Source: Bispira polyomma (taxonomy: Eukaryota). From it: DNA of 64,000 nucleotides. The stretch covers positions 46,996,001 through 47,060,000 of the forward strand of contig OZ287753.1 of the NCBI GenBank assembly GCA_965649765.1, in the 5' to 3' direction. The notes under the pieces are model-generated. The model ran no database searches. It saw only the letters and a list, made by a program, of their open reading frames with translations, and was not told where the DNA came from. This document shows positions 1,340-26,952 of this stretch, one piece after another. The position numbers were made by a program, and so were the translations under genes. Every line of letters starts with the position of its first letter. Position 1 is the first letter of the stretch.

Positions 1340-1668
1340 AACATTGTACAAACCTCATACCTGGTATTGTAGGTGACATTGTACTATACACAAACCTCAT
1401 ACCTGGTATTGTAGGTAACATTGTACTATACACAAACCTCATACCTGGTGTTGTAGGTAACATTGTACTATACACAAACCTCATACCTGGTATTGTAGGT
1501 AACATTGTACTATACACAAACCTCATATCTGGTATTGTAGGTAACATTGTACTATACACAAACCTCATACCTGGTATTGTAGGTAACATTGTACTATACA
1601 CAAACCTCATACCTGGTATTGTAAGTAACATTGTACTATACACAAACCTCATTACTGGTATTGTAGGT
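1340..1668 (+). repeat. 42-bp tandem array (about 8 units) ending at the exon acceptor
   Basis: Unit acattgtactatacacaaacctcatacctggtattgtaggta. Confidence 0.97.
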
Positions 1669-1804
1669 GAAGAGTCCAGAATTCACAGACCAGGCACTTC
1701 CAGTGAAACCAGCAGTTGTTCACGGATAAAACGTGTGCCTGATGATATATTGGGCAGTGATGTCTACAGGAAGTACACTGAGGCCTACGGAATACCAATA
1801 CTGG
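1667..1804 (+). CDS. Zincin-like gene exon (GEESR...VYRKYTEAYGIPILG)
   Basis: ttgtag acceptor, G|GTGAGT donor, phase 1/1. YxKYTEAYGIP is a motif I recall from this uncharacterised metallopeptidase-like family. Confidence 0.85.
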
Positions 1805-1832
1805 GTGAGTAGTCAGTACATACACATATGTA

Positions 1833-1925
1833 CCACTGTGGCCTAGTGGCTAACACACTTGCCTAGGTATGCAGGGGACCAGGGTCCGATCTTAGCCTTG
1901 GGTTCCAAGTTACAAGCAGGTGCAT
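1833..1925 (+). mobile_element. tRNA-derived SINE head
   Basis: A-box-like TGGCCTAGTGG and B-box-like GGTCCGATC, without an intact cloverleaf. Confidence 0.5.
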
Positions 1926-2259
1926 TGGGACTAGTGTCTTGGAACAAAAGGTGGTAATTTTTCATTGGACAGTATCCTCGCCCGCAGGATGTAAAACTTT
2001 TAATGGTGTTTATAAATGGTTATCATTAATCTTTGTCTCAAATCAGCAATTTACTTGTGCATTTTAAGAGACATAACATAAATCCCAGAATGTGAGGAGA
2101 TAAGTAAAAAGATACAAGTTCATCTGGTTCCTAAATGTCCCGGAAACTTTCTGTAACGTTTAAATTTGTTAACTACTTGATCATATAACCGAACATAACC
2201 CTGCGGTATAATACTAACTAATGTTACCAGCATTACATAGAAGTCTTCTCTGTTTCCAG

Positions 2260-2687
2260 GTTCTCAGTATGTATCAGATGCTGCACTGAGTAGGGCCTGC
2301 TACGTGGTGCGTTTTTTCTTTGCTGACAGAAGAGATCTGAGGCGTACCTTTTACAAAGCATGGGGACGAGTGGCCATCATAGGCATGGATGAAAAGATTA
2401 CTGCTCTGCCTGAGTACGAGATGCTCCCTAAGAGTTACCAGGGTCTGCGGGGTCTGGGGGGAGTGCCCTCAGTGCCTGTGGTGGCTGTAGGAGAGGAACA
2501 CCTGGAGTGTGACGTCTCAGAGGACCTCTTCATACGGGAACTCACAATCGGGGTGGTGAACATCGCCATGACTCAGCTCTCTCCACGCTACGACTACCTG
2601 GACAGACTCCAGAACCAGTACACAATGGCCATGGCTAGCAGGATGTGGGAAGACACCTCCTCACGGCTCTCCTACCTCACCTATATA
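2260..2687 (+). CDS. Zincin-like gene exon (SQYVSDAALSRACYVVRF...RGLGG...GEEHL...FIRELTIGV...YLTYI)
   Basis: tttccag acceptor, ATA|GTAAGT donor. Contains most of ORF 2304-2753. Motifs SDAALxRACYVVRF, RGLGG and GEExL. Confidence 0.9.
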
Positions 2688-3075
2688 GTAAGTCTGATCT
2701 ACCTACCTCACCTATATAGTAAGTCTGATCTACCTCTCCTACCTCACCTATAAAGTAAGTCTGATCTATCTCTCCTACCTTACCTATATAGTAAGTCTGA
2801 TCTACCTCTCCTACCTCACCTATATAGTAAGTCTGATCTATCTCTCCTACCTTACCTATATAGTAAGTCTGATCTACCTCTCCTACCTTACCTATATAGT
2901 AAGTCTGATCTACCTCTCCTACCTCACCTATAAAGTAAGTCTGATCTACCTCTCCTACCTCACCTATGTAGTAAGTCTGATCTACCTCTCCTACCTCACC
3001 TATATAGTAAGTATGATCTACTTCTCCTACCTCACCTATATAGTAAGTCCGATCTACCTCTACTACCTCACCTAC
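2668..3075 (+). repeat. 36-bp tandem array (11 units) spanning the exon/intron junction
   Basis: Unit ctcctacctcacctatatagtaagtctgatctacct. GTAAGT at 2688, 2719, 2755 and every 36 bp to 3043. Confidence 0.97.
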
Positions 3076-3562
3076 TGTGCATGTCTGCTATGAATTCTGG
3101 GAAAACGTTGCTCCCTAGTCACTTCTATCAGTACAAAATATAAACACCTCTCAGCTGTTCTTAGAATAATTATTTATTAAATATTTAAGTACTGTATGTT
3201 TAAAAAAGACAGACATTTAAAGTCACTGCAATACAACTGTCCTATTGTACACAAAATAAGGGAGCGACCTTTACCCATAAGGCATTGCACATACCCAATG
3301 ACCCTTTGGCCGTAAAACGGTCTATGTATTTTATTCTCGTTATTACACATATAGCACATAATGTGCACAGCATTAAACTTGTTTGTACTTTAATTTTAAA
3401 GGTATTATATAGGATTTTTATGATGATTAGTGTAGGAATATTTGCAGACCTTAATTTATGATGGCTCTCCTGATAATATTGTAAGAAATATAGTTTTTCA
3501 AATAACTAATTATCCCAGATGTCTACATTTCCCTAATCTATTATATTATTTTGGTTGACTAG

Positions 3563-3731
3563 GGTGAGGGTGTACAGAGTTACTTCAATGTGAATGGTTA
3601 TGCGGATCCTCCCGATGGAATGCACAATAACATCAACTTGAGACAAACCCTTCAGGAGTATGATCCAGGACTGACTAACTTAATAGTGGAGCTACTGCCA
3701 TGTGGGAACAGCTACATACACAACTGCAAAG
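3563..3731 (+). CDS. Zincin-like gene exon (GEGVQSYFNVN...HNNIN.R..LQEYDP.L...CGNSYIHNCK)
   Basis: ctag acceptor in phase 0, G|GTGAGC donor in phase 1. Family C-terminal motifs present. Confidence 0.88.
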
Positions 3732-4550
3732 GTGAGCTGACATACTTAGCCTCAACAAATCAGATGATGTCAAAGAATATTTTCAGCCACTCAAATTGGT
3801 TGAGACAAAAACTTAAGAATAATAATCTTTGTGAATAAGTAAAACATTTATAATGTACTCCATGTGCGTAATGTCTTTACCACCGTGACTATAAATATAA
3901 AAGTAACAATGAATATATCCGTGGCAAGAGGACCTCGGTAATCTCTGTCTGTGACCTAGTGGGTAACAAATCAACTCAGAAACACAGAGGAACTGGGTTT
4001 GATCCCAGACTGGTTCACCCAATACCTGGACACATGCACATACATAGTGGCTCCGATGATCACAGGAAAGAGTATTCATAAGGGGACCTTGATAGATGGT
4101 TGACGCCAGGTATGTGTTTTCAGTAAGGGGAATAATACTAGTTCTGAATGTACTTGTTCAGGAACATGCTGAGTACAGCTCTGTGTCTCAGAATGGAGGG
4201 ACATACAGAGCTGAGGGTTAAAACAAACATTAGTATACAACACAAAAACCAGAAACTGTATTGTTATATGATAGCAATAGAAATCCTACGGTTTTGTGAA
4301 ACTGCCAGTTCAGGGTTGTTGACCTTAAAGTTATGAATGCAGTAATTTTTATAAGCACTGGTAAAACAAATACTATGTAAATATATGAGGGCAAATATGA
4401 TTTTGGAAAATGGAATGCATTTAGTAATATTGTGTGGTAATTTGGTCATTAAATGTTCATGTTACTCAGTTGTAGTAGATTTTATGGGTTGCTCCTGTTA
4501 TACTGTGTCGTGAGTGGCACAGTAAATCATGTACAGATGTATCATGTCTA

Positions 4551-4575
4551 ACACACACACACACACACACACACA
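4551..4575. repeat. (AC)n microsatellite
   Basis: Directly visible. Confidence 0.9.
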
Positions 4576-5795
4576 CTTCACCCACTTACCAACAATGAGT
4601 AAATACTGGAAATAAATGCGATCCATTTTAAATTATCTAAATTGCTTTTGCCACATTCCACAGTTATGTTTTATACTACAGTTGTGTTGATGTAATAGTT
4701 GTCCAAATAACATGTTGTAGGATTGGGTCCCAATTTATTAAAATTGAGTATTTTTATCTATGAATTGATCAGAATATGTTATGATAAGTAGCACTGTTGG
4801 CGTAGACTAGTAAACTGCAAACTCTCCAATTAATGGCCGTGGGTGTACAACATCTGTAACCCAGATTCAAGATTGTGTAGTGGGTTGATTCAAGTGTGTC
4901 CATCTGTCCATCATAGTATACCTGGCGACCAGATGTACTGGTTAACTGATAAGGTATTGATAACAATCCCAACTGTAGAACTGGTCATTTCTTTGCTAAA
5001 GGACCCCGTATCAGTATGATCTAGATAGCCTGTCTATTATTACACCAAAATAAGTTCAATATGTAGCTCTGATGAACCTATATGTACTTACAATAGAGTA
5101 CCAATAATCCGTAACTCTCGTTTAAGTTAAAAATATATTGGCCCATCTGAGATAAAGTCACTACTTACTATATCTGTCATACATAAGAATTGATGAATAC
5201 AACCAGCAATTACATACCACGTGTTATCAAATGTGTCATTGAGTGGATAAGCTCTTGATTACTTAAACTATGAAAGGGCCATCTAGGAGGCTTTGGAACA
5301 ACAGCTAAATTTAGGGGGTTGGGGGTGGGGGAGGTGGGGGGGGGGGTATTGACCGTGGGTATTAAACATGAGTATGTCCTTCTGTTTAATGGTGTTGTGC
5401 CTTACAATCTTCCAGCACAAAACTTTAACACCTTGAGTCAAATTAGATAAGATTCTAGAGCAACCATTTGAATACTGTTTTCTTATTGCTGACAAGGTTA
5501 AACACATTACAACCTCTATTATCGGACCTTATATTATAGATTATAGAAGTATTCAATTTTTTTGAACCCACTTTCACTCTCCAAAAGTTATGTTTTGCTA
5601 TTGTTTATAGTAAAAGGCATCTATAATCTGAGTAAAATCTTGCTCTTCGAACATGTTCAGATAATAGATGCTCCACTGTACACGTGATAAGAGTTCCCTG
5701 TGTAGATCTATTACCTGTGTCAGCTGCATACCAGCTGTATACTTCACATTGTGTTCAGTCTCATATCTCCAGCCTTTGTCGTTATTTCCCATCAG

Positions 5796-5851
5796 GTACA
5801 GAAGATCTCCAGGTGCTGTCCATGAACTGCCCAGTTCAAGTGTGGCCATAA
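5796..5851 (+). CDS. Probable terminal exon of the zincin-like gene (GTEDLQVLSMNCPVQVWP*)
   Basis: tttcccatcag acceptor, phase 1 compatible, TAA at 5849-5851. AATAAA at 6536 and 6549. Confidence 0.65.
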
Positions 5852-6552
5852 ACTAGCCAGTAACTGAGAGGCTCCCAGATGTGTCAAGTGTCCAGTCCAT
5901 ATGACCAGCAAGTCCCTGGATACTCCCCCCTCCCTCACATACAGAGGCTGGGGCACTTTTAGGCTAAGCCACTCTATATACTGTTACATCAGGGTGTCAG
6001 AAGCCACGGAACTGATATATAATAGTCTTGTTATGCCACTTGTTAATAAGAATCTTGTTATTAAGATTTCTTAACGGATGTCCTAATAGTTATTAGTAAG
6101 CTTTTTTCCTCGATGAGAATTATGAGAGTAAAAAACTAAATGTCAAAGACAGTACTCATAATACTCATCAGGCAAGTAATATTTAATAGAATACTGTTGA
6201 AAATAATACAAAACAAAATATGTAAATTCAGTTTTTCCATAAACTGTTTTTTGTAAGAGTTCAAATACTAAGACTTCTCAAGCATTGATATGGATTCCTA
6301 TATTTAACATAAAATGTTCTAACATGTAGCACAGTGGGTTCATGAGTGTAAGTGATCGCTCATATTACCTCAACATGGCTTTATGTCATAGATTCACTGT
6401 CTGTTTTTCTCCTATAAAGTTTGTTATTTATTGTTGTATATTTATGATATTTAAACATACATGTACTTAGTTAATGTTTGACTAATGGATTCTGTAGAGG
6501 GCTATGTATATATGTAGCTATTGTTATAGTGTGTAAATAAAGGCATACAATA

Positions 6553-6780
6553 AACTGGTGTACTCACTGATCTGTAGACAAGTATCAATAGATCGATTAC
6601 CTATACTAGATAGTGTCCTACATGAACTGGTGTACTCACTAAGCTGTGTACTCACTGAACTGTAGACAGGGGTCAATAGACCAACTACCTATACTAGATA
6701 GTGTCCTAGATGAACTGGTGTACTCACTGAACTGTAGACAGGGGTCAATAGAAGAACTAGCTATACTAGATAATGCCCTA
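6553..6780 (+). repeat. About 72-88 bp tandem repeat, 3 units
   Basis: aactggtgtactcact...tatactagata recurs at about 6553, 6625 and 6713. Confidence 0.85.
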
Positions 6781-8663: not shown

Positions 8664-8709
8664 GAGATAGCCCTGTGTATGGTCCAGACAGAACCAACAG
8701 CTCAGGTTA

Positions 8710-9124: not shown

Positions 9125-9126
9125 TA

Positions 9127-9323: not shown

Positions 9324-9365
9324 TCAGGTCTTTTACACAGTAACACACTGAGAAAGCTGGTCACC

Positions 9366-9419: not shown

Positions 9420-12050
9420 GTAAGTCGTCAGTTACAAAACCTGTTGTAGTTGTACTAATAGAATTTTTGTTATCAACATTAATTTCGTGAACAGCAATTC
9501 ATAAAGCACGGTTAATACATATTAGTATATTACAAGATCTTGCATAACTTTACTTCCATCTGTTGTACAAGTTTTTATTTCGGGGGGCGAATTTCACTGG
9601 TGGGTGGACAAATTCATTGCCTCACCAGAAGTAGCCAAGGCTTGAGTAGACGTTAATGCAGATTGTAACCTATTACATTTAATTCAATAAAAGTTTTTCA
9701 TAAACTGTTTTATTTCTGGTGGTGAAATTCACTGACTGACCAGTACAAGAAATGGGAGTTGCATGGCGACATTTTTCGGAAACCAAATTTAAGATGGTTC
9801 TATTGACCATTAACTTTCAGGTGGGTCTTTACTACTGCAGCACTAATCTATGGTTTTGTAGTGGGTAAGTGCCACATACCACGTGGTGGATACAGTAGTC
9901 CACATATACCACGTGGTGGATACAGTTGTAAGGGTTCTAAAGGGCAACAGGAAATTACAAATTGTCCTACTGGGTAGAATTCTGTCTAGTAAATATTTGT
10001 TCGAGCCATTTAATAAACTTTCACATTTGGGTATTTATATTCTACATCAACCTCTCCATCTGACTAGCAATATGATTGCCCAAAAAAATGCTTTGAATAT
10101 GAAGGTTTTTATTTGCCCAATGTCTGCTCAACATATAGCGAGACGGTAAATTCAACCTTTACAACTGAATGTACTTGGCAAAATACAAAGGTTACTTCAG
10201 TGGAGTCTGCAGTTTTGCCAAACACTAAATAGGTCTAAAACTGATTATTACTGACAATATTTAACAAGTTAATCTTGGTGCACGTGATCGATAGTTTTCA
10301 GATGATTATGTAATAGAATTCGTTACACCAGTTACTTGTAGAGTGACAAAAAAGTGTATATAGTTATTAAATGAATAGTTTGTTCAAGTGTCAAACTAAA
10401 CAATTTACGAGACCGTCCAACAAGCTTTTCTGGGTGCAATTTAAAAAAAAAATAAATAGAAAATATGCAAGTAAATCCATCGTCTGTGGCAGTGAACTTC
10501 AATGACACTTCTCTAATAATGAGGTATTCTTGCTACCAGTAGATCCACCATAGTTTAGCTTTGCTGAAATCCTCTAGCTGTCTGGCTTAAAATGAAGCCC
10601 AAGGCCTAAAGTAACTCTTAGCTTTGTTGCATTGTGCATGATGTAAAATCTGAAGCTCCCCCCCCCCCCCACTACCCCACCCCCCACAAAAAAAATAATA
10701 AAATAAAATAAGAAATAGGGCCAAGAAAGAGGTCACACCTCCTGTACACAAGTCTATTACTAGTTGTAACAAACTGGTGGCTCTGACCTTTTGTGAATAC
10801 TGCTGCGGCAGTGACTGACAGTCTCACAAACCTAGGTGTGTCTTATATGATATAACAATATGATTAACCTTAAAACTACTTTGATAAGTTGTATGAAGTT
10901 GGTTGAGATTGGTTGAGAAAAGATGTGATGCAGTTTGGGGTATCTTTATTTAAAATTTGATTTTTTTTTACATCTGTACAGAATTTTAATGAAATTTCCA
11001 TTCATTACAATTTTAAAAGGCCAAAACTTTTTAAAAGAAGCAGTAATGATGGCAGCAAAAGTTTCTGGAATAATAGCAGCTGCGTGAGAAGTTTGTTCTA
11101 AATAACTCCAAACTGCATCCGATTTCCAACACCCATGCTTCTGAATGTTTTGTAATTTAATGTTATTGTTGATTATTTAATTTTTTACATCTGTACAGAA
11201 TTTTAATGGAATTTCCATTCATTAACATTTTAAAAGTCCATTACGGCTCACTTTTCCCAACAAAAAGGAAAATAAAATATAATAAAACGTATGCCAATCT
11301 AGCATAAATCACCTATAACAAGGCTACTAAACATTAAGTAATAACTGTTAACGCGTCCCATAAAAGGGGTATAAAGCTTGTAAAAAAAACATTTTTTTTT
11401 GTCCTAGAAACCCATAATAGGGTGACATATCAAAGAACAAGATAATTAAAAGTTACAGATAAAATAATTTTGACATCTTCAGTCAAAAAATAATATACTC
11501 TTGAAATACATGCACAATGTATGATTACTCTGATTAACCAAGAGAGCGCGCTGCAAGAAAATATGAAAAAGAACATATTCAGAAAATCAAGGTGGACAGG
11601 GGTACGTCAAAAACTGACAGCCTCCGCGTCCGGTCATACCCTGCAGGGCTCCGAATTCTCTTGGTAGCCACGCCAAGATCAAGTTTATAAGGAGAAGACC
11701 GACGGTTACACAGGTGCCGACTTAGACGCATCCAAATCCACTATGAAATACTGTGTTGTCTATGTGTAGGGAAGGTGGGAGGAATTTTTTCGCCTTGCCG
11801 TGTGTACCCTTAGGCTTTGGGTTTCAATGTGAAGAATAGGCCCTATGTTGCTAATCAGAGTTTTGAACCCCAACGACCACAATGCTCTTGGTTGGTAGGG
11901 ATTACAGTAAAGGTCTAAATTTTCGCGACTGACTGGCCATGCCCGACGGCAGTGACTATGACACTTTGTACACCACTAAATCCTATTCTTCAAGCATATA
12001 TGTTGAATGTCACCAGTATCCATTTGTTACTATAAGGGCTGTGTTTACAG

Positions 12051-12177
12051 AGTGTGAGTCCTGCCCCTAAAGAGTCTGAAGTCTATGATGTCCTCCATCA
12101 TCTCTCCCAGAAACAATTGGACACATTGGCTGACACCTTACTGAGAGGAGACAGTAAGAGGGAACTTCAACAAAGAG
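12051..12177 (+). CDS. Peroxidase exon 2 (propeptide SVSPAPKESEV...ELQQR)
   Basis: tttacag acceptor in phase 0. The donor is uncertain (12177 phase 1 or 12181 phase 2). Confidence 0.65.
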
Positions 12178-12851
12178 GTCAGTTGGTGCAATGGCAATAC
12201 TGTTAACTGCTCTCAGCACATTACATTTCCATCTTTATTAAACTAATGATGGTGCGATACCTTTTAAATGGACATTAAATTTTAATCTTTGCTAAACTCA
12301 TGTTGGTGTGATACCTATTAAATAGACATTAAATTTTAATCTTTATAAAACTAACGTTGCTGCGATACATATAGTTTAAAACAGATGATTTTTTGTGGAC
12401 CATTTCAACACAAAATGCTTCCAAGTACATGAATTCAACAAACTGATATCACAAAATCAGAACTGTTTCAAGACTCAATGTAATAGTATTAATTTTTTAT
12501 TTCAGTAGTAAGTGTATTTTAGAACTTACACACATATATGATCAAACCAAAAAGAAAGCTAGTTTTCCAAAAAAATGTTATATTATTTCAGTGGAGTAAT
12601 TAACATGGGCAGTGTGGTTGCCTAGTGGTTAGAAATGTTTCCTTTACAATTACTGTTGGCTCACCAACGTGGCTTTGAATCCTGTTCCTTGCTTGTGGAA
12701 TAGTTTGTCAGGTCTTCAGCACTGGTTTATTCCACCATTAAATCTCGCAGGCGTAACATGACTAAAGCAAATTTATATCCTTACATACTCAGTATTTTAA
12801 TAAATCGAAATATTTATAAATAGCATACACTGTGTATCCTATTTTTAACAG

Positions 12852-12940
12852 CTTTGAGAAAGAAGAGTTACTGGATGACGCCACAAAGATGACAGCAGCT
12901 CTGATCGCCCAGGAGAGTGTGGCAGCCGAGACTGGTAGAG
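12852..12940 (+). CDS. Peroxidase exon 3 (FEKEELLDDATKM...ETGR)
   Basis: ttaacag acceptor, GAG|GTATGT donor. Open only with phase-2 entry. Confidence 0.65.
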
Positions 12941-14465
12941 GTATGTACACAATTAGTGGTCAGAAGTAAACTAGTCTAGTGTAGTATAGGTGTGTACACA
13001 ATAACTGTGGCTGTAAGGGGTCAGAAGTAAAGTGGTCTAGTGGAGTACAGGTAGGTATACAATAACTGTGACTGTATGGAGTCAGAAGTAAAGTGGTCTA
13101 GTGTAGTACAGGTAGGTATACAATAATTGTGGTTGTATGAGGTGAAAAGTAAAGTGGCCTAGTGTAGTACAGGTAGGTATACAATAATTGTGGATGTATG
13201 AAGTCAGAAGTAAAGTGGTCTAGTGTAGTACAGGTGGGTATACAATAATTGTGGTTGTATGAGGTCAAAAGTAAAGTGGCCTAGTGTAGTACAGGTAGGT
13301 ATACAATAATTGTGGATGTATGAAGTCAGAAGTAAAGTGGTCTAGTGTACTACAGGTATGTATACAATAACTGTGGTTGTATGTGGTCAGAAGTAAAGCG
13401 GTCTAGTGTAGTACAGGTAATTGTAATTAGACTTTTATTGCGTTTAATCTCCCCTTAACAAAGGGGACTCTAAGGCGCACCAGCACAAAAGACAGTTATC
13501 CAATTTCCAAAATCAAGGGACAGAAAAAGGGTCAGCAACATAGAGCGCGCCGGGGGATGATTGAGACTAAGGTGGATATGCTTTAGTGTACAAGTGGGTT
13601 TTAAGCTTCTTTATAAAACAGGCTAGTGAGGGGGAAGCACGAATCACATCAGGAAGACCATTCCAAACAATGGGAGCATCAAAAGCAAAGCTGTGACCAA
13701 ACTGTTTTACCGACCTTTGAGTAGATGGGTGGAACTTCGGAACAACAAGGAAATTACTACCACTAGGTAGATATGCAATAACTGTGGGGTCAGAAGTAAA
13801 GTGGTCTAGTGTAGTACAGGTAGGTATGCAATAACTGGTTGTATGAGGTCAGAAGTAAAGTGGTCTAGTGTAGTACAGGTAGGTATACAATAACTGACTG
13901 TATGGGGTCAGAAGTAAAGTGGTCTAGTGTAGTACAGGTGTGTACACAATAACTGACTGTATGAAGTCAGAAGTAAAGTGGTCTAGTGTAGTAAAGGTGG
14001 GTATACAATAATTGTGGTTGTATGAGGTCAAAAGTAAAGTGGCCTAGTGTAGTACAGGTAGGTATACAATAATTGTGGATGTATGAAGTCAGAAGTAAAG
14101 TGGTCTAGTGTACTACAGGTATGTATACAATAACTGTGGTTGTATGAGGTCAGAAGTAAAGCGGTCTAGTGTAGTACAGGTAGATGTGCAATAACTGTGG
14201 AGTCAGAAGTAAAGTGGTCTAGTGTAGTACAGGTAGGTATGCAATAACTGTGGTTGTATGAGGTCAGAAGTGGTCTAGTGTAGTACAGGTAGATATGCAA
14301 TAACTCTGGGGTCAGAAGTAAAGTGGTCTAGTGTAGTACAGGTATGTATGCAATAACTGTGGTTGTATGAGGTCAGAAGTAAAGTGGTCTAGTGTAGTAC
14401 AGGTATGTATACAATAACTGTGGTTGTATGGAGTCAGAAGTAAAGTGGTCCAATCTGGTACAAGT
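12941..14465 (+). repeat. About 61-bp tandem array (about 20 units) starting at the exon 3 donor
   Basis: Unit gtaggtatacaataactgtggttgtatgaggtcagaagtaaagtggtctagtgtagtacag. Confidence 0.97.
13420..13764 (-). mobile_element. 5'-truncated L2/CR1-type LINE 3' end inserted in the array
   Basis: Reverse complement encodes FGHSFAFDAPIVWNGLP...FIKKLKTHLY. AGGTA duplicated at 13415-19 and 13765-69. Confidence 0.85.
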
Positions 14466-15281
14466 AGTGTTGAATGATTTTGTAAGGTTAGTAGTAACTT
14501 TAAGATGTGCATAATATTGTGGTGACTAAAGTAAAACTGAAAATAAAATTTAATATTGCCACTAATGTGTTCCTAATATGAGAGGTCAGTGTCGATATTG
14601 GACTTTTCACATAACAACTTAAGTTCACCGTATGTAGAACTACAACCAAACACATAGTTTGAAATTACGGTAGTGTAAAACTTTAAAAATAAGTAATGTG
14701 AAAGGGTCCTTCAAGATTTCCTTGGTCTACTAGGGATACCACATGTTGTAAATGCTAATCATATTATATATTATTATATACCAGCTACATAATTGAACAC
14801 CTAAAATAGAAATCATTCCAGCATAGATATAACAAAAGTTCGTTTAAAGAAACTAACTTCACAATTTTCAGCTGTTTAGCAGCCAGTTGAGTAGATTACC
14901 TGTTGGTGAACGTCAGGGCCATGGGAAATTCCAAATTTGTATGTGCTTTTATCTTTACACACGTCCAGATTGATGAAAAAAGTTTGGCGAAAAATCTCTT
15001 ATAGTCAGGGTAGCACTCTCGCTTAGAAGACCTGGGCCTAATCCTAATCTGGTCAGACTAGCTATAGACAGACATTGGGACTTGTATCTAGTGATAGGCT
15101 GTAGATAAATGGTCACCCTGAAGCATAGACAAGAAACAACTATTTTCTGCTTGAGGAGTGAAATCCCCTTTATTGAGTAACTTAAGGGAAACCAATAATA
15201 CAATGTACAGTCTTAAAATCATGTTATTAAATCTGCTATAAACCCAAATTTAAAGCCTATCATACTTTTATTTCTGTACAG

Positions 15282-15411
15282 TTAATGAAGCCACCCAAAA
15301 ACTGCTGCAATTTCTGTCCACCAACCCCCGGATTAAGAGAGCTGGACTGGCAGCCAGCACCCAGCTAGAGACCATCAAGTCTTACAGGAACGAGTGGCTC
15401 CAGAAAAGAGG
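15282..15411 (+). CDS. Peroxidase exon 4 (VNEATQKLL...WLQKRG)
   Basis: gtacag acceptor, GG|GTAAGG donor, phases 1/2. Confidence 0.75.
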
Positions 15412-16156
15412 GTAAGGGAGCTTAGAACTACCCTATAAGTGGTTATAATCAGAAGTAATAGCTTGAAACATTTACACAGGTGAAAGACAAATTTAAAGCT
15501 GGGAGGTACTTTTATCTTTCAAGAAAATTTGAGATGCAATCAATTGTAGTTATGTGCATAATTATAATTATTACAGATTACATGCCCAACATTCAATTTG
15601 TCAGACAAAAGTTGGGATTATGCAAAGATTAATACATTTCGGCACATATCTGTACCAAGCATTGGAGTTAACCGGTATGATGAATTTATAAGGCTACACG
15701 GAGGGATTTTCAATCCGATTTTATCTTGGCAACTGATATGATACGATGGATTTTAAACACGCCTAATTGATGCCAGGCATCTTTTAAAGTGCAACATCAT
15801 TGACAATGTTGTAAACATTGTACTCGGTTGCAATGCAAATTTGTGATTGGGGATTGCAATTGAGAATGTCCCAGTGGTTAGGAAGTTGGTCTTGGAAGGT
15901 TTCCCATAAGACTCCTGGTAACACCATAGTGGTTGTTAGGGGAGAACATCTTTTGCCAAAATGTTAATATGCCATTGCCTACTTTTGATGCTCAATTGGC
16001 TATAAATTAGGATAACGATTAATAGTTTATTGGTTCTAATGTTGTGCTTCAAATAATGCCCAGTTCCATATGGCACATTAAAATCTTAACAACTGTAGTG
16101 TTAGTGCCTGATCTGTACATTGTTAATCTTTAATACCACCTTCTCTTCCTATGTAG

Positions 16157-16420
16157 ACATCTGGAGGAGGAGGCAGACTTCTGGACTGAGATGAAGAGAC
16201 ATAGGTTCAAGCTTTCTTAAGGAGAACCCTGAGGTTGTTAGCCCAGATACCAGGCAGACCATCTTTGACCCGTATACATGTCCATTCCCCAAGGTGGCCT
16301 GTGACAGGAAGGTGAAGTACCGCACCATTGATGGCACCTGTAACAATCAGGGGGCAGACAAGGAGGCTTGGGGCAGTAGTAACAGGGCACAGGCCAGGTT
16401 ACTTGAGCCTGTGTATGATG
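16157..16420 (+). CDS. Peroxidase exon 5 (HLEEEADFWTEM, frameshift, DIGSSF...YRTIDGTCNN...WGS...RLLEPVYD)
   Basis: Start of the peroxidase domain. G|GTGAGT donor. Internal +1 frameshift near 16195. Confidence 0.85.
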
Positions 16421-16692
16421 GTGAGTTAGAACATAGTATGCCAGGGGTCACAGTTAAACCTGTAATGATTGTACAAGATACATATTCAGCTCTGAGGAAG
16501 TTCAGTTGTTGGCCCATTGTCAGATAATATACTGTAATTTATGTAATCAAAGCTCCAACATTATTTTAACATTGTCAAGACTGGCTGAAGCTTACGCCAG
16601 ATTTTACTATTTTGTATGTGTTAGTTTCAAGATCAGTCATATTCTTAAATTATCATGTCATCTGTTAAAGGATCAACAGGAAATCCAATGTA

Positions 16693-17448
16693 CACTGGTC
16701 AAAATTGAATAGGACTCAGACATATAAATGTTGGTAATTTCAAAAGTTTGGAGAACTTCAATTATTTTGATATGCATTTGTATAAACACATCTATTATTC
16801 ATTTTTAATTTTTGCAGCTTTTACCAAAACAAAATTATTTAAGGAATTACCAACCAAAGAATGTGATGGGCGAGAAATTCAAAGTCACAAGCAGACAGAT
16901 TTACAGATGTCAGGAAAACAAAAGTTGTCTTTAATTTGCCAATTTATTGAAAAATTACTTTTTTATAGTGGGTTCTACTCTTATTCAGGTTTATGCACTG
17001 TCTTTGAATAGTCACAACAGTATTCCAGAATACTTGCTTTTCCCAGTTTTTCCACTCTTTCTGAGGGCCTGGATCTGCATGGGCACATTGGAACAGGTGG
17101 ATTATGATCTGGAACACTCTTGTGATTATGCAAAGACATTGTACTGAGTTTATTGACCTAAATGGGGTGCAACCCACTATTAATACTTATTTTTTCAATC
17201 AATTGGCAAATGAAAGACAACTTTCATTTTTTTGACATCTGTTTTCCTGTGTTTGTGACTTTGGATTTCTCGCCCATCACATTCTTTGCTTGGTAATTCC
17301 TTAAAGAATTTTTTGGGAGGAAGCAACAATAGATTAAAAAAAGGACAATAGATGTGTTTATACAAATACATATCAAAATAAATAAAATTCTCCACAATTT
17401 TGAAATTAGCAACATTTATGTCGGAGTCCTATTCTATTTTGACCAGTG
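16693..17448. mobile_element. Tc1/mariner-like fold-back MITE with about 255-bp TIRs
   Basis: TA|cactggtcaaaattgaataggac... versus ...gtcctattctattttgaccagtg|TG. Confidence 0.85.
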
Positions 17449-17455
17449 TGGTAAG

Positions 17456-17585
17456 GACCACACATCTGCCTATGGTGACCACACATCTGCCTATGGTGAC
17501 CACACATCTGCCTGTGGTGACCACACATCTGCCTGTGGTGACCACACATCTGCCTGTGGTGACCACACATCTGCCTGTGGTGACC
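17456..17585 (+). repeat. 21-bp tandem repeat x6
   Basis: Unit gaccacacatctgcct(a/g)tggt. Confidence 0.95.
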
Positions 17586-17682
17586 TGTATCTGTATATTC
17601 TATGACTTGTACAGCTTCAGATCTGTATATGCTGTTATGGTAGGGTAACGTTTCACTTCTGTATAGTATGTTGTTCGGGAAG

Positions 17683-17859
17683 GTGTGGACTCCCCCAGGA
17701 TAGCTGCTGATGGAGGTAGCCTCAGTAGGACCCTGTTTGACATGGATACGAAGTCCAGTGGACTCTACACTGTACTTAACATGGTCTTTGGTCAGTTGCT
17801 GGACCATGACATCAGCCACAGCCCTGTTTCTGCCTTGGCAACCAATCTGGATACACTGG
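17683..17859 (+). CDS. Peroxidase exon 6 (GVDSPR...FGQLLDHDISHSP), distal His
   Basis: Motif match and G|GTAAGT donor. The acceptor position is uncertain. Confidence 0.85.
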
Positions 17860-20800
17860 GTAAGTGGGTGTGCATGGTATGAATGCTGGGGGAGGGCATG
17901 TGTGCCAAAACACTAATTATTCATATGTCTATGTTAAACTTCTATAGCGTCCCAATTGATGTCTAGATATCAGTGGAACACATCCCACTCAAGATCCTAC
18001 AAAAATAGCCTGATAGAAGGACTAGATTGGTGAACAGACTTCCTGTAACCAGGAGACGTATGTCATGGCGGCCGAGCGAGTTGTTACAAATAGGTTGGGA
18101 GTTATTCTTAGGAAAGCCTGCTATATTTGTGTTGGTATTGATACTGAGAGGGAGACTATTCCATTTAGACGAGGTGATGCAACTTTAATTAATGTAGAAC
18201 TTACTAGTGTATTTGGTAATATGTCAGAGGTGCAAAACTGATTTTCCTCTTGAGATTGCGGATATATATCATGGGTAATAAGTAAGCTAGCTGTTGAACA
18301 TGAACAGTGAGGACATTAATTTAAAATTAAAAACGGAACTCAATTGGTAACCAGTGGTGTTTTTAAGCAGAGTGGTATTTGTGAGCCATGACCAGCTTGA
18401 TATTGATCTTAACAAATTATATTTAAGCTATTCTTCAGCAGTACTTTCTTGCAATATCTGAATTAATTATTTGCAAGATGTTGTCAACATAATCTTTCTG
18501 TGACCTTGTTCCTATCAGGACTCGTACAAAAATGTGTCTAAAATTGATACATATACACTGACACTTAATCATTTACATGTTTTTCACAAAGTAAAGCTTT
18601 TTATCAAGATGTTTACATTGTAGATTACGCGACAGAGAAAATCGAATCGTGAGGACAGCACTTTCTACTATCTCCTTGTATCATTTTTACTTCATTTTTC
18701 GTACTTATTTCGTATTTATTTTATTTGTTTGTTAAATACTTTTAGTACTTTAGTCTACTAATTACCACATTTTTCCTTATATATTTCATCGCTTTAACGG
18801 ACTTGGTCAAGAGATAGATATACAAGGAAAAGCATGGGTTTGCCAATATATATATATATATACAATATAATGTATATACACTATACTGACGGGATATATA
18901 TAATTTCTATGTAATTGCTTCTAACTTGCGAGAACACACGCCTTCTAACTATAGTTAGACCACTAGATGGCGCCATACTACAGTGTTTTTTTTTGTAAAC
19001 AAGAAGACCTCAAACAGAAGATAGACGAAATTTTCAAAATGAGGTGTAAGAAGTGGCAAATAGAAACCAAATTGCCTTTATTCAATAAAAATATTAATAT
19101 TATATAAAAGTTTGATAAAATAATCACATCATATGCACATATAGTTGCTTTAATCCGTTAAAATTTCGATAGTTTGCGAGACTTCCATTAGCTTTCAAAA
19201 CCGCCATATTTGTTGTCATTAAACACGTGTAAACAGATGATCAAAGATGGCCACTGGCCTCATATTGTGATTGGCTGAAAATCTGGGCGGTTTCCAATGC
19301 GCTTGCGCAGTAACTGAAGTGTATCAGGTTAAAGGTCAGACCTCTCAGAAATGGCTACAATTTTTAATCCTCCAATCAAAAACTCGCCCCTTCTTCCCCT
19401 CTTCCCCTATCTGTGTACTCCTCTAAGAGTATATAGATACTCGAGTGACCATTTGACAACTTCAAAGTAATGCTGTGTGTAGCGAAATGCTTTATTATTG
19501 TGGTTATATACGCAGATATACTTTACTCGCATATTCAAACTACAATATACTTGGATATCCATCTTCAAGGCGATATAAGGTAGGAAATATTGTATATACA
19601 ATTCGCCATTTTTTTTAAATACATATTTAAACTACAATCTATTTGATCATATTGGAAGTAAACAACTATACGTATCTTATATACCATGGAGGATCCGACG
19701 TCTATATTAGAAGGAAGCAATTAATGAAACTTCCCAATGGCTTTGATCTTTGACTGGGAACATATATTAGTGTAAGATATTTAAAGGATAGTTTTTCGTG
19801 TTCTTTTTGTGAATGAAAGTTGAGTATGTGGTTCAAATGCATATATACTTCATTTTATTTTCAAATCGTTTAGTTTCATAATATTTCTTTAATTGAATCA
19901 CGGATTCTTCTATTTTGGGGGAATTGCTTTATTATTATGTTGTGTATATATATTATTTGTTTTATAACAATTTATTTTTTAATATAATTAACTAAATAAC
20001 CCTGCCTCCTTGTACACCATTTCTACTCTTCAAATATAAACTCACAGGAAGTAATATAAAAAAAATGGCAAATGGCAAAATGCTTTATTATTATTAAAAG
20101 ATTTCAATTAGAATAGTTTGGGCTCGCTCTGCCAGAAGTTAACACACTATGGTTTGTGTTAAATTCTTTCATTGTCGCTCATATACACATGCTTTAAATA
20201 ATAAAAAATATATAAGGATTTCGTGTGTACTTTGGGTACTTCCTGGAAACTCGCCCCATCTGTGTACTTCAAAGCAATGCTGTGTATATAGCAAGTATTG
20301 TCACAACACGTGCCTTTTTCTGGACATTTCGGAACACAAGAAATTAAGATAAACTCTTTATTTTGTCAGACAAATACATTTAGCATTTCTAGAATTTATC
20401 TTTATAATAATCCCTTCAATTTGCTTTTCAAATGAAAACGTATGTTGGAAAATTTGAAGCATAGAAATGGTATGCAACGACCCACGGATTATTATTATTC
20501 AAAAAGTAAAAATTAAATTGCAAAAATGTAAGATACATTTTTTTTGTCATACAAATACAATAAATTTCTAAAATTTACCTTGTGTCTTACTAATTCATTC
20601 AATTTGCTTTTCAAATGTCCACGTGCTTCCCAACTGCGCAATATTTATTATTATAAAGCGTCACGTGTTTGTGGTTAGCCAATTAGAATCACTGATACAG
20701 TAACCAATAAAATCGCTTCATACAGACATTAGGGTGAGCAAAAATATAAGATGTTTTGTACAAACGAGTTGGGTAATACTACTCCCATCTTCGCAACCAG

Positions 20801-21013
20801 TGACTAGTCCACTATTTTCGTACTCTTTAGCAATCTTCCATCTTGATATGTGGTGACCACTGTCACCACTATTTTCCTTGTTATTGGTTGTAATAGTCCA
20901 TAGAATGAATTATTACCGTTTTGCCACATAGTTGCAATATTTAGGTGTATTATTAGTACTAGTAAAAGAGCAGTGGTATAAACACCGTCTTTATATGTGA
21001 ACTCTTTTTACAG

Positions 21014-21187
21014 AAAATGCCACCATTAATTGTGGTCTGCATGGCTGTGACACGTATGATGGGATGGATTTGTTCAAAAAGGACTGTTTCCCTATCACCT
21101 TCCCACCAAATTATATGTATGCAGAGGGCAGGCAGTGTATGGCCTTTGTGAGATCTCAGGCTTACCTCAACTCTAACTGTGACCTCA
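21014..21187 (+). CDS. Peroxidase exon 7 (CFPI...CMAFVRS)
   Basis: tttacag acceptor, A|GTAAGA donor, phase 1/1. Confidence 0.9.
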
Positions 21188-21627
21188 GTAAGATTAAATG
21201 TTTTAACATAGCTATGTGTACACTTTAAATAAAGTTTGCAAAACAAAAACAGAATGTATAGTGTAGTGGGTTATGGTATTGTAATGCTTTAAATTAATAT
21301 ACTCTTGTATAGTGCAAGTATGTGAAGGTGACCACCATGCTAACAATGGTCGACGTCAAATTCACATGGTTTTCTTAGTATTGACAAGAAAAAAAAATAA
21401 TATACATAAAATGCTAGTAACTCATGGAGGAATCTGTGATCTTTGGTATTTGTATAATTAAGATCAGAATTATAACGAAATAAATCTATAAGCAGCCATA
21501 ACTTTGACGTAATTGTGAGTATTCTGGGTATGTTGTGTTGGGTGTTTGGATATGTGATTTTAGACGTGTAGTATGTTAGTATAGTAAGCTCTAGTGTTCT
21601 GTAGTGTGGTGGTGTTTGTGTTGGTAG

Positions 21628-21729
21628 AACCCAGACAACAGGCAAACTCCATCACCTCTTGGTTAGATGTGTTCATGGTCTATGGCAGTACAAGGACAAG
21701 ACATAGCCAATTAGTAGATACTGCTACAG
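21628..21729 (+). CDS. Peroxidase exon 8 (RQQANSITSWLDVFMVYGS; Ca-binding loop)
   Basis: tag acceptor, G|GTAAGT donor, phase 1/1. Confidence 0.9.
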
Positions 21730-22682
21730 GTAAGTCATGCTCTTCAGCATTTTGTGATGTATAACTTCTATATCGTTACCATAATGTCCAGGCATCCTCA
21801 TTAACGGACACTAATCCAGATCCAACAAACTGTAGTCTGACAGAAAGAAACAGGTGTATGATCATAGTCCAGTGGAAATCGACAGATGTATGTCCAATAA
21901 GTTTTGTCCAAAGATGCTGCAATGAAATCCTAGTGACAGCTGGTCCATACTTGATAGATTTTGTTAACTGAACCACTACAGTCTGAATGTTTTCTGATTC
22001 TGCACATAAAGTAGAAAAGTACTGTGCAGTTTAGATTTGTAATGTTTGTTATTAGAGTTTGGCAAATTCATTTCAAAATTGAGAAGAAAGAATCGACACT
22101 TGCTTTATGAATTGTTTTGTATAAAAAAAGACTTAATATTTCCACAATGTTCCAAATAAATTGTTTTGTAGTGTATTCAAATTATTAGTAAACACATTCA
22201 TCTACATTTTTCTGGTGTTAAAAGTGATATTTACCAAACTACAGTCAACCAGTATTTGTGAATCCCCTAACTAAAGATAGGCTTCAAGATGGCAATTTAT
22301 CAACCGGTTCTTCATTTAGCCTGTTTGGATAGAATCCTAGGATAGAGGACCAGTGTTTTAAGTTATCAACTGAGTCACTGTATAATTGCCTGTACCTGGT
22401 TGCCTCAGGCTGTGATTGAACCCATGTACTCTGTTTCTAAGCGAGCATTACCCAATATGTCAGCTAATTGTTACACAAGTCCAAAATACACTTTAGATAG
22501 TTTTAAAATAATTTTGCTAAAATCTGGATAGTTACCTGAAGTTGTTTATCCAGCTCCCTCACTATAGTTTAAAATTCACTGCAAAACGTGTTTGTTTGAA
22601 TACCTTATTATACTATGACATCAGCCCATGTCACTGTAGAATTATATAACTTTGAATTGTTTTACCTTTGGAATCTAAACAG

Positions 22683-22796
22683 GAGAAATGGTGATGATGC
22701 CTCATCCAATTGTTTCGTTTCAAAAGCCATTGTTGCCACCAAGTACAGGGGCTAGGTGTAGAGGACTGACCGATGTGATTCAATGTTTCCTTGCAG
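22683..22796 (+). CDS. Peroxidase exon 9 (...LLPP...CFLAG)
   Basis: cag acceptor, G|GTAAAG donor, phase 1/1. Confidence 0.88.
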
Positions 22797-22977
22797 GTAA
22801 AGTTATTTATAATGTACAGGTGTGAACAGATGTATCCAAACTTAGAAATCTTTTTGTAATATCCTAAATACATGTGTGAAGCATGGGTTGGAATAATGTG
22901 CAAGTGTATTCCTGGATTACCAGTATGAGTTCTAGTGTACTATACAGTTGTGATGAGGAGTTTCTGTACATGGTAAG

Positions 22978-23270
22978 TAGGATCTAGAGCTGATTAGGTT
23001 TTGGAGGGTATCTAGCAACAACTGTTGGCATGGCAACGCTTTTAAGATTTTGGGTCTTAAACATTGTGGGTGTTCCACAGGCTAAACCCATGCATAGATT
23101 TTCACAAATTTTTCAGGATACGTTTACCCCAAGAGGATCTAGAGCTGATTAGGATTTAGGGGTATCTGGCAACAATTGTTACCATTGCAACACTTATAAG
23201 ATTTTGGGCTCCTCAACTTTGTGGGTGTTGCACAGCCTAAAACGATCTATGGATTTTCACTAAATTTTTA
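22978..23270 (+). repeat. About 155-bp direct repeat x2, probably internal to a non-autonomous DNA element
   Basis: aggatctagagctgattagg...gattttcac at about 22978 and 23133. Confidence 0.7.
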
Positions 23271-23722
23271 TGATAGGTTTGAGTTTTGTATACTTCTAAC
23301 TTTTTAACTTATTCCTTATATTTTACCAAATCTCAATGTTGTTGCCCATTTAGTTGTATCTGAGGGCTGGGGTACCTGCCTGCCGAGGCTGGCTATTTTT
23401 CACAATTGTACTTCTGTAAACGATGTATATTTAGCAACTAATCAACTGTATGAAATTTTAATTTTATACGTTAGGCCTGGAAAATTTACTTTTGGTGTTT
23501 TGTATTAGGTAGTTGTGTATAAAAGGATCAAGGTTTTTACCCAAGCCTCTATATGAACCATGAGGTATTGTTTTGACCTGGGTCATCCGGGTGGGCAGGT
23601 AATAACTGCCATAGTTCATATACAAATATTTTTGAGGGGCACTAGGTGTACAAGGTGTGATTTCATCTAAAGGCTGTTGGGTTTTGGCATCTCTGATACT
23701 ATTTTGAAGTTTGTGTTTACAG

Positions 23723-23865
23723 GAGATGTACGTCAAAATGAGCAGGTTGCCCTCACTGCCATGCATACCGTGTTTTCTCGAAAGCATAACCACATTCTGG
23801 AGCAACTGAAGAGTGCCTATGCATCTGCTGGTGTTACTGCACCTAACACGGACACATTATTTCAG
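23723..23865 (+). CDS. Peroxidase exon 10 (GDVRQNEQVALTAMHTVFSRKHN...LFQ)
   Basis: Motif match, phases 1/0. Confidence 0.92.
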
Positions 23866-24580
23866 GTAGTGTACATTACGCTCTGATTCCATGTATCAGG
23901 AGGCTATTTTTGATAGTGTACAGTACAGAAGTACAGGTGTCTGTACATCTGCCTCTTGCATATCTGCTATTATTATGAGTAAGCGGGACATTACCAGTAG
24001 ATCATAATTTCATAGTTTTACATATTAATCCAATGTTTATATCCATTAACAATCATTGAGTTGATACTGATAGATGTTAGGCTGTTAAATATCTAATGCC
24101 TTACCAAAGTGATTGTGCTAGTGTAGCTACAATGTAATTCTATCTCTGTCGCTGACGCACAATTATACCATAAGATGTACAGCTATTATCCAATGTAAGT
24201 ACTTCCACACAGTTAATTCATGTAAATTCTACATTACATCTAGTTTAAATGTTCCCCTACATCTATTTTTTACGTTGGATGTAAATGTATGTACAATTTG
24301 TGTCCTGCAATATTTCCTCCACTTATAAGGCCGTAGGAATAAGCTTAATAGCTATGCAGTAAAGTTTGCTGCTAAGTTTCTTTTACTTTACTGGCACCAC
24401 TGCATTTGTTTAATGACCTGCAATTAGAATTATTATTTATAAAGTAAACCCTACATTAATGAAAAATTAAATATTATTATGGGGCAAGCCCCTCAATGCC
24501 TAGTTAGAAACGTGAGGAGAATTGTGTCCTAAAAGTAGCCATAAATTGAATGTTTTCTGAGATGAGTGAAGTTTATTCAG

Positions 24581-24707
24581 GAGAGTAGGAAGATCCTGGG
24601 AGGTGTGTGGCAGCACATGGTATACAATGAATACCTGAGAGCACTGCTTGGACCAAAAATCATGGCTGAGTATCAACTAGAACCTCTGAAAGAGGGATTC
24701 TTTACCG
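24581..24707 (+). CDS. Peroxidase exon 11 (ESRKILGGVWQHMVYNEYLRALLG), GC donor
   Basis: Motif match. G|GCAAGT gives the required phase 1. Confidence 0.9.
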
Positions 24708-24831
24708 GCAAGTTATATCCACTCGTATCTATTATTCTAACGTCATAAGTTGACTTAACATAGGTTTATTTAAAAGAGTCGACAGTAATTTATAGAGCAT
24801 TTCGCTTTTAATATTGTCATTAAATATTTGT

Positions 24832-25562
24832 ATAAATTTGTGGTGGCTTGCCTTAACCATCTGAATTTGTAGACGCTTACGTTAACCATCTGAATTTGTA
24901 GTCGCTTACCTTAACCATCTGAATTTGTAGTCGCTTACCTTGTCCATATGAATTTGTAGTCGCTTACCTTGTCCATATGAATTTGTAGTCGCTTACCTTG
25001 TCCATATGAATTTGTAGTCGCTGACCTTGTCCGTATGAATTCGTAGTCGCTTACCTTGTCCGTATGAATTCGTAGTCGCTTACCTTGTCTGTATGAATTC
25101 GTAGTCGCTTACCTTGTCCGTATGAATTTGTAGTCGCTTATCTTGTCCGTATGAATTTTTTGTCGCTTATCTTGTTCGTATGAATTTTTAGTCGAATACC
25201 TTATCCGTATGAATTTGTAGTCGTTTGCCATATATGTATGAATTGGTAGTCATTTGCCTTATCGGCATGAATTTGTAGTGGCTTGCCTTGTCCGTAAGAA
25301 TTTGTAGTGGTTTGCCTTATCAGTATGAATTTGTAGTCGTTTGCCTTATCAGTATGAATTTGTAGTCGTTGGCCTTATCAGTATGAATTTGTAGTCATTT
25401 GCCTTATCAGTATGAATTTGTAGTCATTTGCCTTATCTGTATGAATTTGTAGGGGCTTGCCTTATCTGTATGAATTTGTAGTGGCTTGCCCTATCCGTAT
25501 GATTTTGTAGTCATTTGCCTTATCTGTATAATTTGTAGTGGCTTGCCTTACCCATATGAATT
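24832..25562 (+). repeat. 30-bp minisatellite, about 24 units
   Basis: Unit aatttgtagtcgcttaccttgtccgtatga and variants. Confidence 0.97.
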
Positions 25563-25655
25563 AGTACTCTCTTCTCTGCTTTTGATACTCCAATTACTCC
25601 TATAATATTTGAGTGCAGTACATTGTTTATAAATGCATCTTTTTACCACCGCCAG

Positions 25656-25791
25656 ACTACAGTGAGGATGTCCAAGCATATGTCGCCAATGTGTTTGCTG
25701 CTGCAGCCTTCAGATTTGGACACTCAGAAATTCCAGACATGATGAGATTTGCCAGTAAACTGATGTTTTTGAGGAAACACACCTGTCAGAG
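25656..25791 (+). CDS. Peroxidase exon 12 (NVFAAAAFRFGHS; proximal His), -1 frameshift near the 3' end
   Basis: Motif match. The frame must shift to EETHLSE| to join IFFAP. Confidence 0.9.
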
Positions 25792-25869
25792 GTAGAGTAT
25801 AATATTGTGCACGCAAGATGATTTTACGGTAAGCATTGCAGTGTAGAATAAAATTCTTTTAAGTTATGA

Positions 25870-26020
25870 TTTGATTCTGGGTTTAACGTCGCTTAACACA
25901 TTGTGTAGGTCACATAACGACAGGCAGTTTTAGTGCTGGAGGAAACCAGTTTATACTAGTTGGTCAAGATTTTACACTGTATACCAGAGACCATCGGCAA
26001 GTACCTGCCAACTTTCCTAA
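25870..26020 (-). mobile_element. SINE 3' part (same family at about 36410-36640 +, 46075-46280 -, 55450-55590 +, 56415-56600 -)
   Basis: Shared ggaaagtt..caggtacttgcc..ggt...ttcctcca...g(c/a)cgttaaacc core. Confidence 0.65.
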
Positions 26021-26732
26021 AAAAGACAATTAATTTTTTAACCATAAAGCCAAAACAGTAGCAATATAAAAGTAAAACCTAACCTCACTGTTACTGTAAT
26101 TTACATATGAAATCAAAGCACTGGAATCTATGGATTTAAATATTTGCAAATACTATATGATTAGTCATGCAAGTATAGATGTTTTTCTCGTTAATCTTGT
26201 TTTTATTTAAATTGTGTTTTGACCCTTTTCTGTCTAATGACAAACAGAACAATGAATTAAGAGTTTAATTGTTGCGCCTTACACATTACTTGTACTGAGA
26301 TGCAGCGTGCTAGGTGTCCATGCACTGTGACAGGTAATCATATGTGCAACTTGAATCTCTCCACTTGTTTTCTTAAAGGCATGTTTTATCAGGGCATATA
26401 TTGTGCATATTTTCTTGATTCAGTACAACCTCTATAATCCGAACATGGTGCAAATCACAAAGAAAATGTAAATTTGGGACAGCAATTGTGTGTACATAAA
26501 ATTGAACATTCGTATAATATAAGTTTTGATTAAATGCAGGTTATACTCTATAGTGTACTTTCCAATTTGCTCCCTGTTTACGATACCTGATACTCTTGTT
26601 GTTCCCGATATTTTTCAGCCCATAACCCTGAACCACAGCCCAGTTCCTGAGATTTCGAGTGTGGAATATTTACTATTGCAGGTTCTCAATTTGCTCTGTA
26701 TTTAAAATACCTGATACTCTTTGTTGTTCCAG

Positions 26733-26952
26733 ATATTTTTTGCCCCCACAACCCTGTACCACAGCCCAGTTCCTGAGATGTATGGTGTGGACGCCATCAT
26801 ACTGGGAATGATTTCTAGTCGCGCTGAGTCACCAGATGACCAATTCTGTGGACAGATTGACAACCACCTTTTTGCACAGGAGCCTCCATTTGGTATAGGC
26901 CTAGACCTGGTAGCCTTAAACATACAGAGGGGCAGAGACCATGGCATTCCAG
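26733..26952 (+). CDS. Peroxidase exon 13 (IFFAP...DLVALNIQRGRDHGIP)
   Basis: Motif match, G|GTAACA donor. Confidence 0.93.

Follow-up and report, generated by a model that had tools for sequence, protein, structure and literature searches.

Tandem arrays straddling exon–intron junctions occur in several-fold excess in sampled Bispira polyomma genes

We analyzed a stretch of 64 kb of the Bispira polyomma genome (GenBank assembly GCA_965649765.1, contig OZ287753.1, positions 46,996,001 to 47,060,000 of the forward strand; this whole stretch is called 'the window' below), in which four tandem arrays touch exon edges of two genes. By their sequence structure these arrays are minisatellites of the type known in amphioxus as 'mirages'; arrays 2 and 4 are clear cases, and arrays 1 and 3 qualify through 2–4 shared exon bases only. 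In genes sampled outside the window, arrays of this kind straddle ∼1 in 11 exon–intron junctions, a 4–5-fold excess over expectation. While the structure itself was already known, the quantified excess is new; mirages have so far been treated as single-gene curiosities of unclear origin. The excess is strongest in young arrays and, therefore, the rate of duplication is probably not uniform along genes.

Frequency of straddling arrays at junctions

The assembly comprises 1.035 Gb in 75 contigs. The window was chosen after its arrays had been noticed; the unbiased test of an excess is the sample of the genome taken outside the window. The main part of this sample was 40 kb around each of 20 dynein heavy-chain genes of the same genome. 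We took 150 reference proteins, used those of at least 3000 amino acids, and called junctions by a custom spliced aligner with the two best references per gene. The second reference confirmed 477 of 593 introns found with the first one; six introns from one dynein gene, where the aligner had mistaken array copies for exons, were removed, with 471 introns and 942 junctions remaining. Such arrays are likely to corrupt gene models. A tandem array was counted as straddling if its end unit spanned the exon–intron junction. The 20 related genes dominate the sample, and all DNA fetched amounts to ∼0.2% of the genome.

We observed straddling arrays at 86 of the 942 dynein junctions, 41/471 donors and 45/471 acceptors, i.e. 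with no preference for acceptors. The expectation derived from 282 kb of dynein intron DNA located at least 150 nt away from any junction was 12.6 per side, ∼25 in total. The excess resided in arrays with units of 30–160 bp (84 of 942 junctions versus ∼18 expected; 4.6-fold, with a gene bootstrap range of 3.4–6.1); units shorter than 30 bp or longer than 160 bp showed no junction excess in the dynein sample. Unit lengths in the 86 cases ranged from 26 to 151 bp, and the copies diverge by up to ∼30%. More than half of all the arrays of 30–160 bp in dynein introns (84 of 155) straddle a junction, and array density declines from junctions into introns. Arrays at both ends of the same dynein intron did not cluster (5 introns versus 3.9 expected). 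In the dynein gene D14 (G000:C1:24406001-24446000) a donor mirage of 41 bp x158 occupies 6.4 kb of a 6.8-kb intron.

Other families, pooled, had straddling arrays at 13 of 201 junctions versus 2.6 expected from their flanks; these junctions were called by motif near the edges of hidden Markov model (HMM) matches and hence are less exact than the dynein ones. The straddled junctions were distributed as follows:
Myosin: 8/53
Peroxidase: 1/52
Family of gene 1 of the window (68 of 73 loci used): 1/23
HECT/E2, internal exons: 3/73

Among acceptors of last exons 3 of 45 were straddled, 3/11 in HECT genes and 0/34 in the others, mostly fibrinogen-domain and P450 genes. A sequence-only reading of the window had claimed that tandem duplications recurrently arise on splice junctions; an excess over random expectation, determined by Tandem Repeats Finder (TRF) on gene samples, is thus present both in dyneins and elsewhere.

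Several causes of the excess were rejected. With junctions displaced by 100–300 nt into the same introns, 4–13 of 458 were straddled versus 46–54 of 458 real ones under four TRF settings; the excess persisted under all four. Local GC content does not produce it, as the GC-matched expectation was 6.6 donors and 7.3 acceptors versus 39 and 45 observed. Splice-like motifs on either strand show no excess of arrays, with strong pseudo-sites straddled in 11 of 922 cases versus 11.9 expected. The expectation of 10.9 or 12.2 was far from the 84 observed, whether the interiors were repeat-derived or not. Exon ends bearing mirages were not GC-richer (P = 0.07) and had slightly fewer CpG (P = 0.055), and the per-gene rate of mirages did not follow the observed/expected CpG ratio of exons (rho −0.07).

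Arrays of the window

The four arrays, along with an insert that splits one of them, have the following coordinates in the window:
Array 1: 1348..1668, plus strand; 42 bp x7.6 (TRF), intron tail up to the acceptor 1666/1667
Array 2: 2667..3074, plus strand; 36 bp x11.5 (TRF), ∼21 nt of exon tail, donor 2687/2688 and intron head
Array 3: 12941..14450, plus strand; ∼20 units of 53–61 bp from the predicted donor 12940/12941
Insert in array 3: 13418..13764, minus strand; 347 bp, high-copy, retroposon-like
Array 4: 26563..26791, plus strand; 126 bp x1.8 (TRF), ∼45 nt of intron tail, acceptor 26732/26733 and ∼58 nt of exon head

All four arrays reported at splice sites by the sequence-only reading were found by TRF, and all touch exon edges. 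Its further statement that the unit sequences are unrelated agrees with our inspection (not an all-against-all search), in which each unit matched its own exon or intron edge; on the same inspection, with units unrelated across loci, a dispersed repeat or transposon family was rejected as the source. The features of mirages are present: an end unit spanning the boundary, unrelated units of 42, 36, 61 and 126 bp, and partial retention of AG/GT. Arrays 1 and 3 overlap the exon by merely 2–4 bases each, thus they are intron ends abutting the splice site, which in array 3 is a predicted one.

The acceptor 1666 and the donor 2688 are backed by spliced alignment to the homolog P0001. In array 1 the units contain no stop codons and continue the frame of the adjoining exon; six of seven decoy AGs are intact, and the nearest one is dead, with AA in place of AG. 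The 10 decoy donors of array 2 are intact without exception, and none is in frame, as the first of them is located 31 nt downstream. The donor 12941 of array 3 is predicted from frame continuity of a chain of three open-frame exons, and the majority of decoy donors outscore it. TRF finds the 61 bp unit of this array at 12958–13419 and 13788–14450; the edge unit is diverged. The 347-bp insert, which presumably resembles a 3′-end of a long interspersed nuclear element, has a depth of ∼4e5 versus ∼17 in unique bins, and full or near-full copies of it, 82–97% identical, are present in six other fetched stretches of the genome. The insert splits array 3 in reverse orientation, which shows that the array is older than the insertion. 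In array 4 the upstream copy is 83% identical and carries dead CG instead of AG; the acceptor 26732 was chosen in spliced alignments by three of five peroxidase references.

Of 39 candidate junctions in the window three pass the strict straddling rule, four if array 3 is counted, and the intergenic half would predict ∼0.5 (calculated by hand); the rate of 3–4/39 is typical of this genome. Two wholly intronic arrays, 29 bp x25.7 (24830–25573) and 21 bp x6.2 (17456–17585), end 80–100 nt from acceptors and straddle no junction.

One could suppose that the excess is due to chance in a repeat-rich genome with short introns (the median dynein intron is just 604 nt long) or to assembly stutter. This explanation is largely refuted, and we give it hardly any credence: nulls computed from shifted positions and interiors of the same introns are 4–5 times lower, and the copies are diverged. 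Moreover, Logan DNA contigs (three runs, at most two samples, one study; all three behave as DNA) match the unique flanks (900–14800) exactly and come to an end within arrays 1 and 2, as expected if the repeats are present in reads; copy numbers are not given by these contigs.

Decoy splice sites and intron gain

The nearest decoy GT was intact in 36 of 41 donor arrays of dyneins (32 expected), the nearest decoy AG in 39 of 45 acceptor arrays (35.5 expected). Decoys whose score equals or exceeds that of the real site were present in 30/41 donor and 28/45 acceptor arrays. We saw neither purging of decoys nor in-frame bias among the 86 dynein arrays; loss of the decoy adjacent to the acceptor, as in arrays 1 and 4, is not general. 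With reading frames intact, the innermost splice site is likely to be used despite the decoys, as in human F7 and amphioxus mirages. Exon definition and nonsense-mediated decay would be the reasons for innermost-site use. The 86 natural decoy ladders in 20 genes make a resource for studying how an invertebrate spliceosome chooses the innermost donor or acceptor.

The sequence-only reading had suggested a splicing rule that tolerates many decoy sites. Decoys are tolerated indeed; however, a special rule is unnecessary, as use of the first donor is reported for human F7 in the available text of PMC1557585.

Could the arrays be kept for a function, with decoys or copied exon motifs tuning splicing or giving isoforms? 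Decoys are intact slightly more frequently than in a rough neutral expectation (281/303 versus 243 and 141/159 versus 121.5), and array 1 is in frame and has no stops. Still, we regard a function as very unlikely: the neutral expectation is biased low, with gaps counted as differences, 157 of the donor copies come from one array, decoys are not preferentially in frame, and copy number varies between near-identical paralogs.

We found no support for the link to intron gain by tandem duplication made in the sequence-only reading (for this route, the Rogers model is cited in the available text of PMC2812944, and a potato case is given in that of PMC4974935). None of the 471 dynein introns was spanned by an array or had matching junction flanks, in genes that are strongly constrained, and the window arrays, which occupy one end of their introns only, do not have the arrangement of the Rogers model.

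Breakpoints, array age and origin of the excess

Our favored explanation, to which we give about an even chance, is that exon DNA is more prone to short duplications, or to their first expansion, and that selection keeps only the copies straddling a junction. First, a duplication of 30–160 bp would occur that has one end within the ∼100 nt of exon next to a junction and the other across the junction, in the intron. Wholly exonic copies are absent, presumably removed by selection, and straddling copies would survive if they include enough of the intron to keep the authentic site functional. The spliceosome would then take the site nearest to the exon body, with decoys nearly silent and free to drift. 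Finally, the pair, given the observed instability of copy number, may expand into the intron via slippage or unequal exchange.

The positions of unit ends bear on the first step. The exon part of the unit was 1–90 nt at donors and 2–110 nt at acceptors. Breakpoints did not pile up at the splice site: the exon part was ≤4 nt at just 4/41 donors and 3/45 acceptors, the excess was 2–8-fold in each offset bin, and the exon fraction of the unit was indistinguishable from uniform. Among 14 arrays of 30–160 bp beginning ≤30 nt inside an intron, 8–9 looked by eye like diverged mirages, with the remainder close to background. Thus, most near-junction intronic arrays are, as judged by eye, mirages with a diverged edge unit, which places the step in array frequency at the junction or exon-ward of it.

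The second step is reflected in what is retained. In 40 of the 41 donor arrays the unit included ≥7 nt of intron, and in all 45 acceptor arrays ≥10 nt. Units at acceptors were longer than those at donors (70 versus 48 bp, P = 0.00015); no array lay wholly inside exons in 114 709 dynein exon bases. A minimal intron part, longer acceptor units and array-free exons together make the pattern that a selective filter would leave.

An alternative is survival bias: arrays are born evenly, and those anchored in exons persist longer, being shielded from deletions, which cannot extend past the splice site, and having one copy under selection. The drop in array density from junctions into introns would fit, as would the correlation of the per-gene mirage rate with interior array density (rho 0.49, P = 0.03). 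The age of arrays points the other way. Near-identical arrays (≥92%) numbered 26 versus 3.5 expected (7.5-fold), diverged ones (<85%) 27 versus 8.3 expected (3.3-fold), and young two-copy pairs 10 versus 2.2 expected (4.5-fold); the larger excess among near-identical arrays, together with that of young pairs, favors a higher rate of birth or early expansion over longer survival. The excess is also seen against non-repeat interiors. We consider survival bias improbable as the explanation. Instability is evident in a myosin gene with near-identical copies on three chromosomes (L018, L019 and L020), where the donor mirage has 12, 24 and 16.8 units; two of the three loci are 99.4% identical in the flank and yet differ in copy number.

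Exon edges lacking a splice site were considered as well. The sample of stop codons came from galactosyltransferase, fucosyltransferase, G protein-coupled receptor, P450, HECT and fibrinogen-domain loci; 189 of 216 rows were kept after removal of broken, distant-stop and duplicate ones. Five of 189 stop codons were straddled, four of them by units of 30–160 bp, versus 1.5 predicted by the local flanks, a 2.7-fold ratio (0.7–6.8); these data are ∼2 times likelier under a junction-like excess than under no excess. Two start codons were straddled (one by eye). The loci, with no splice site at the straddled edge, are:
Straddled stop codons: L254, L268, L296, L411
Straddled start codons: L191, L388

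Thus, a mirage-like structure arises without a splice site, at a lower rate than at junctions. Arrays may also be less well tolerated in a 3′ untranslated region than in an intron. In the small sample of last-exon pairs 3 of 45 acceptors and 1 of 45 stop codons were straddled. In each of the 30 best P450 matches (L374–L403) the domain was free of introns over most or all of its length.

The strongest competitor of exon-biased duplication is damage coupled to splicing or transcription at boundaries (R-loops, polymerase pausing, spliceosome-linked breaks) that seeds the duplications; we hold it possible, though rather doubtful. It would account for the sharpness of the excess at junctions and its equality between donors and acceptors, for a stop-codon count (4/189) that is lower and compatible with no excess (P = 0.066), for the excess left unexplained by GC and motif controls, and for the top rates being those of myosin (8/53) and HECT last-exon acceptors. 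It would not predict breakpoints spread over the exon end without a spike at the site, the small size of the excess on the intron side next to the junction when diverged mirages, recognized by eye, are discounted, or identical structures at stop and start codons. The stronger statement, that germline duplication of junctions coupled to splicing or transcription is the main source of intronic minisatellites (the 84 of 155 above) and marks ∼1/11 of junctions, we likewise regard as a tentative one, unlikely on present data. The sequence-only reading had placed a mutational focus on exon–intron boundaries: the junction excess does extend beyond the window, but nucleation at the splice site itself is disfavored by the spread of breakpoints, by motifs showing no excess and by the straddled stops and starts.

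Several observations speak against exon-biased duplication, too. Stop codons were straddled less frequently (4/189) than dynein junctions (84/942; Fisher P = 0.0005) and than non-dynein junctions (15/246; P = 0.057), and the stop-codon data favor an exon-edge effect over a splice-only effect by only ∼2:1. Rates are uneven, from 0/50 to 8/46 across dynein genes, and low in peroxidase loci (1/52) and in the 0/34 group of last-exon acceptors. Copy identity is a rough clock, as arrays homogenise. Neither a cause nor a sequence correlate of a higher exon rate was found in GC, CpG and motif tests. The origin of mirages has become a testable question, exon-biased mutation versus splicing-coupled damage.

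Relation to known systems

The comparisons here rest on the available portions of the cited papers. Amphioxus mirages were described in Adh3, in globins BflGb6 and BflGb9, in troponin C and in PGBD5 (PMC3087553, PMC3902484). Like the arrays reported here, they consist of minisatellite-like copies across either exon boundary, with units of 10–160 bp, in which many but not all copies keep AG/GT (PMC3087553); copy number varies and splicing is apparently normal (PMC3087553, PMC3902484). Those accounts, in the portions available, deal with single genes, call the mechanism unclear and give no null model (PMC3087553, PMC3902484); here, in contrast, ∼9% of junctions are affected, the 4–5-fold excess is measured, and 471 dynein introns bear no trace of the intron gain that had been proposed. 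We found no genome-scale enrichment test of mirages in the literature searched, with supplements, most subscription papers and the original amphioxus paper outside its scope. Splicing QTLs linked to repeat length are the subject of PMC10078293.

The closest match to array 2 is the 37-bp variable number tandem repeat in intron 7 of human F7: its first unit spans the boundary, and the downstream donors are functional yet silent, the most upstream one being chosen (PMC1557585). The F7 case is one donor-side locus with experimental proof, whereas our cases are on both sides, at many loci, and are based on sequence. Human genes in segmental duplications have internal tandem repeats at exon–intron boundaries, with minisatellite units of ∼30 bp and cryptic splice sites inside (PMC2812944); the likeness lies in ∼30 bp units that alter exon edges and in splice sites within units. 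These and the potato case alter transcripts or make introns (PMC2812944, PMC4974935), while here the authentic exon is intact.

Genes and other elements of the window

Two plus-strand genes occupy 1–29.3 kb of the window; the rest is mostly transposon remnants.
Gene 1: 990..3731 (3′-end provisional), plus strand; exons ∼990–1080, 1667–1804, 2260–2687 and 3563–3731
Gene 2: 9821..29237, plus strand; animal haem peroxidase (PF03098), ∼17 exons

Gene 1 belongs to a secreted-type protein family (13 matches genome-wide) and has 42% identity to P0001 over its largest exon. An array of 51 bp x3.6 (9138–9430) is located just upstream of a short open stretch with a strong donor at 9420; here either gene 1 may have its 3′-end or gene 2 may begin.

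The 5′ exons of gene 2 are predicted from open frames, and the frame link from exon 12037–12177 to the exon at 12852 is provisional. A GC donor at 24708, after exon 24581–24707, was picked by all five peroxidase references. We looked for a small extra exon between 25755 and 26732 and found none. The gene has two apparent frameshifts (16190–16215 and 25750–25765), each at a short simple run, and otherwise, we assume, catalytic-type motifs; the frame breaks could mean a young pseudogene or a null allele, or be errors of the assembly.

Broken reverse-transcriptase-like frames on the minus strand at ∼42200–45500 suggest a decayed retrotransposon, which we take to be possibly Ngaro/DIRS-like; a perfect repeat of 74 bp x4 (45567–45860) comes after these frames. 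Decayed frames at ∼40100–42100 presumably resemble a THAP-domain or transposase-like element.

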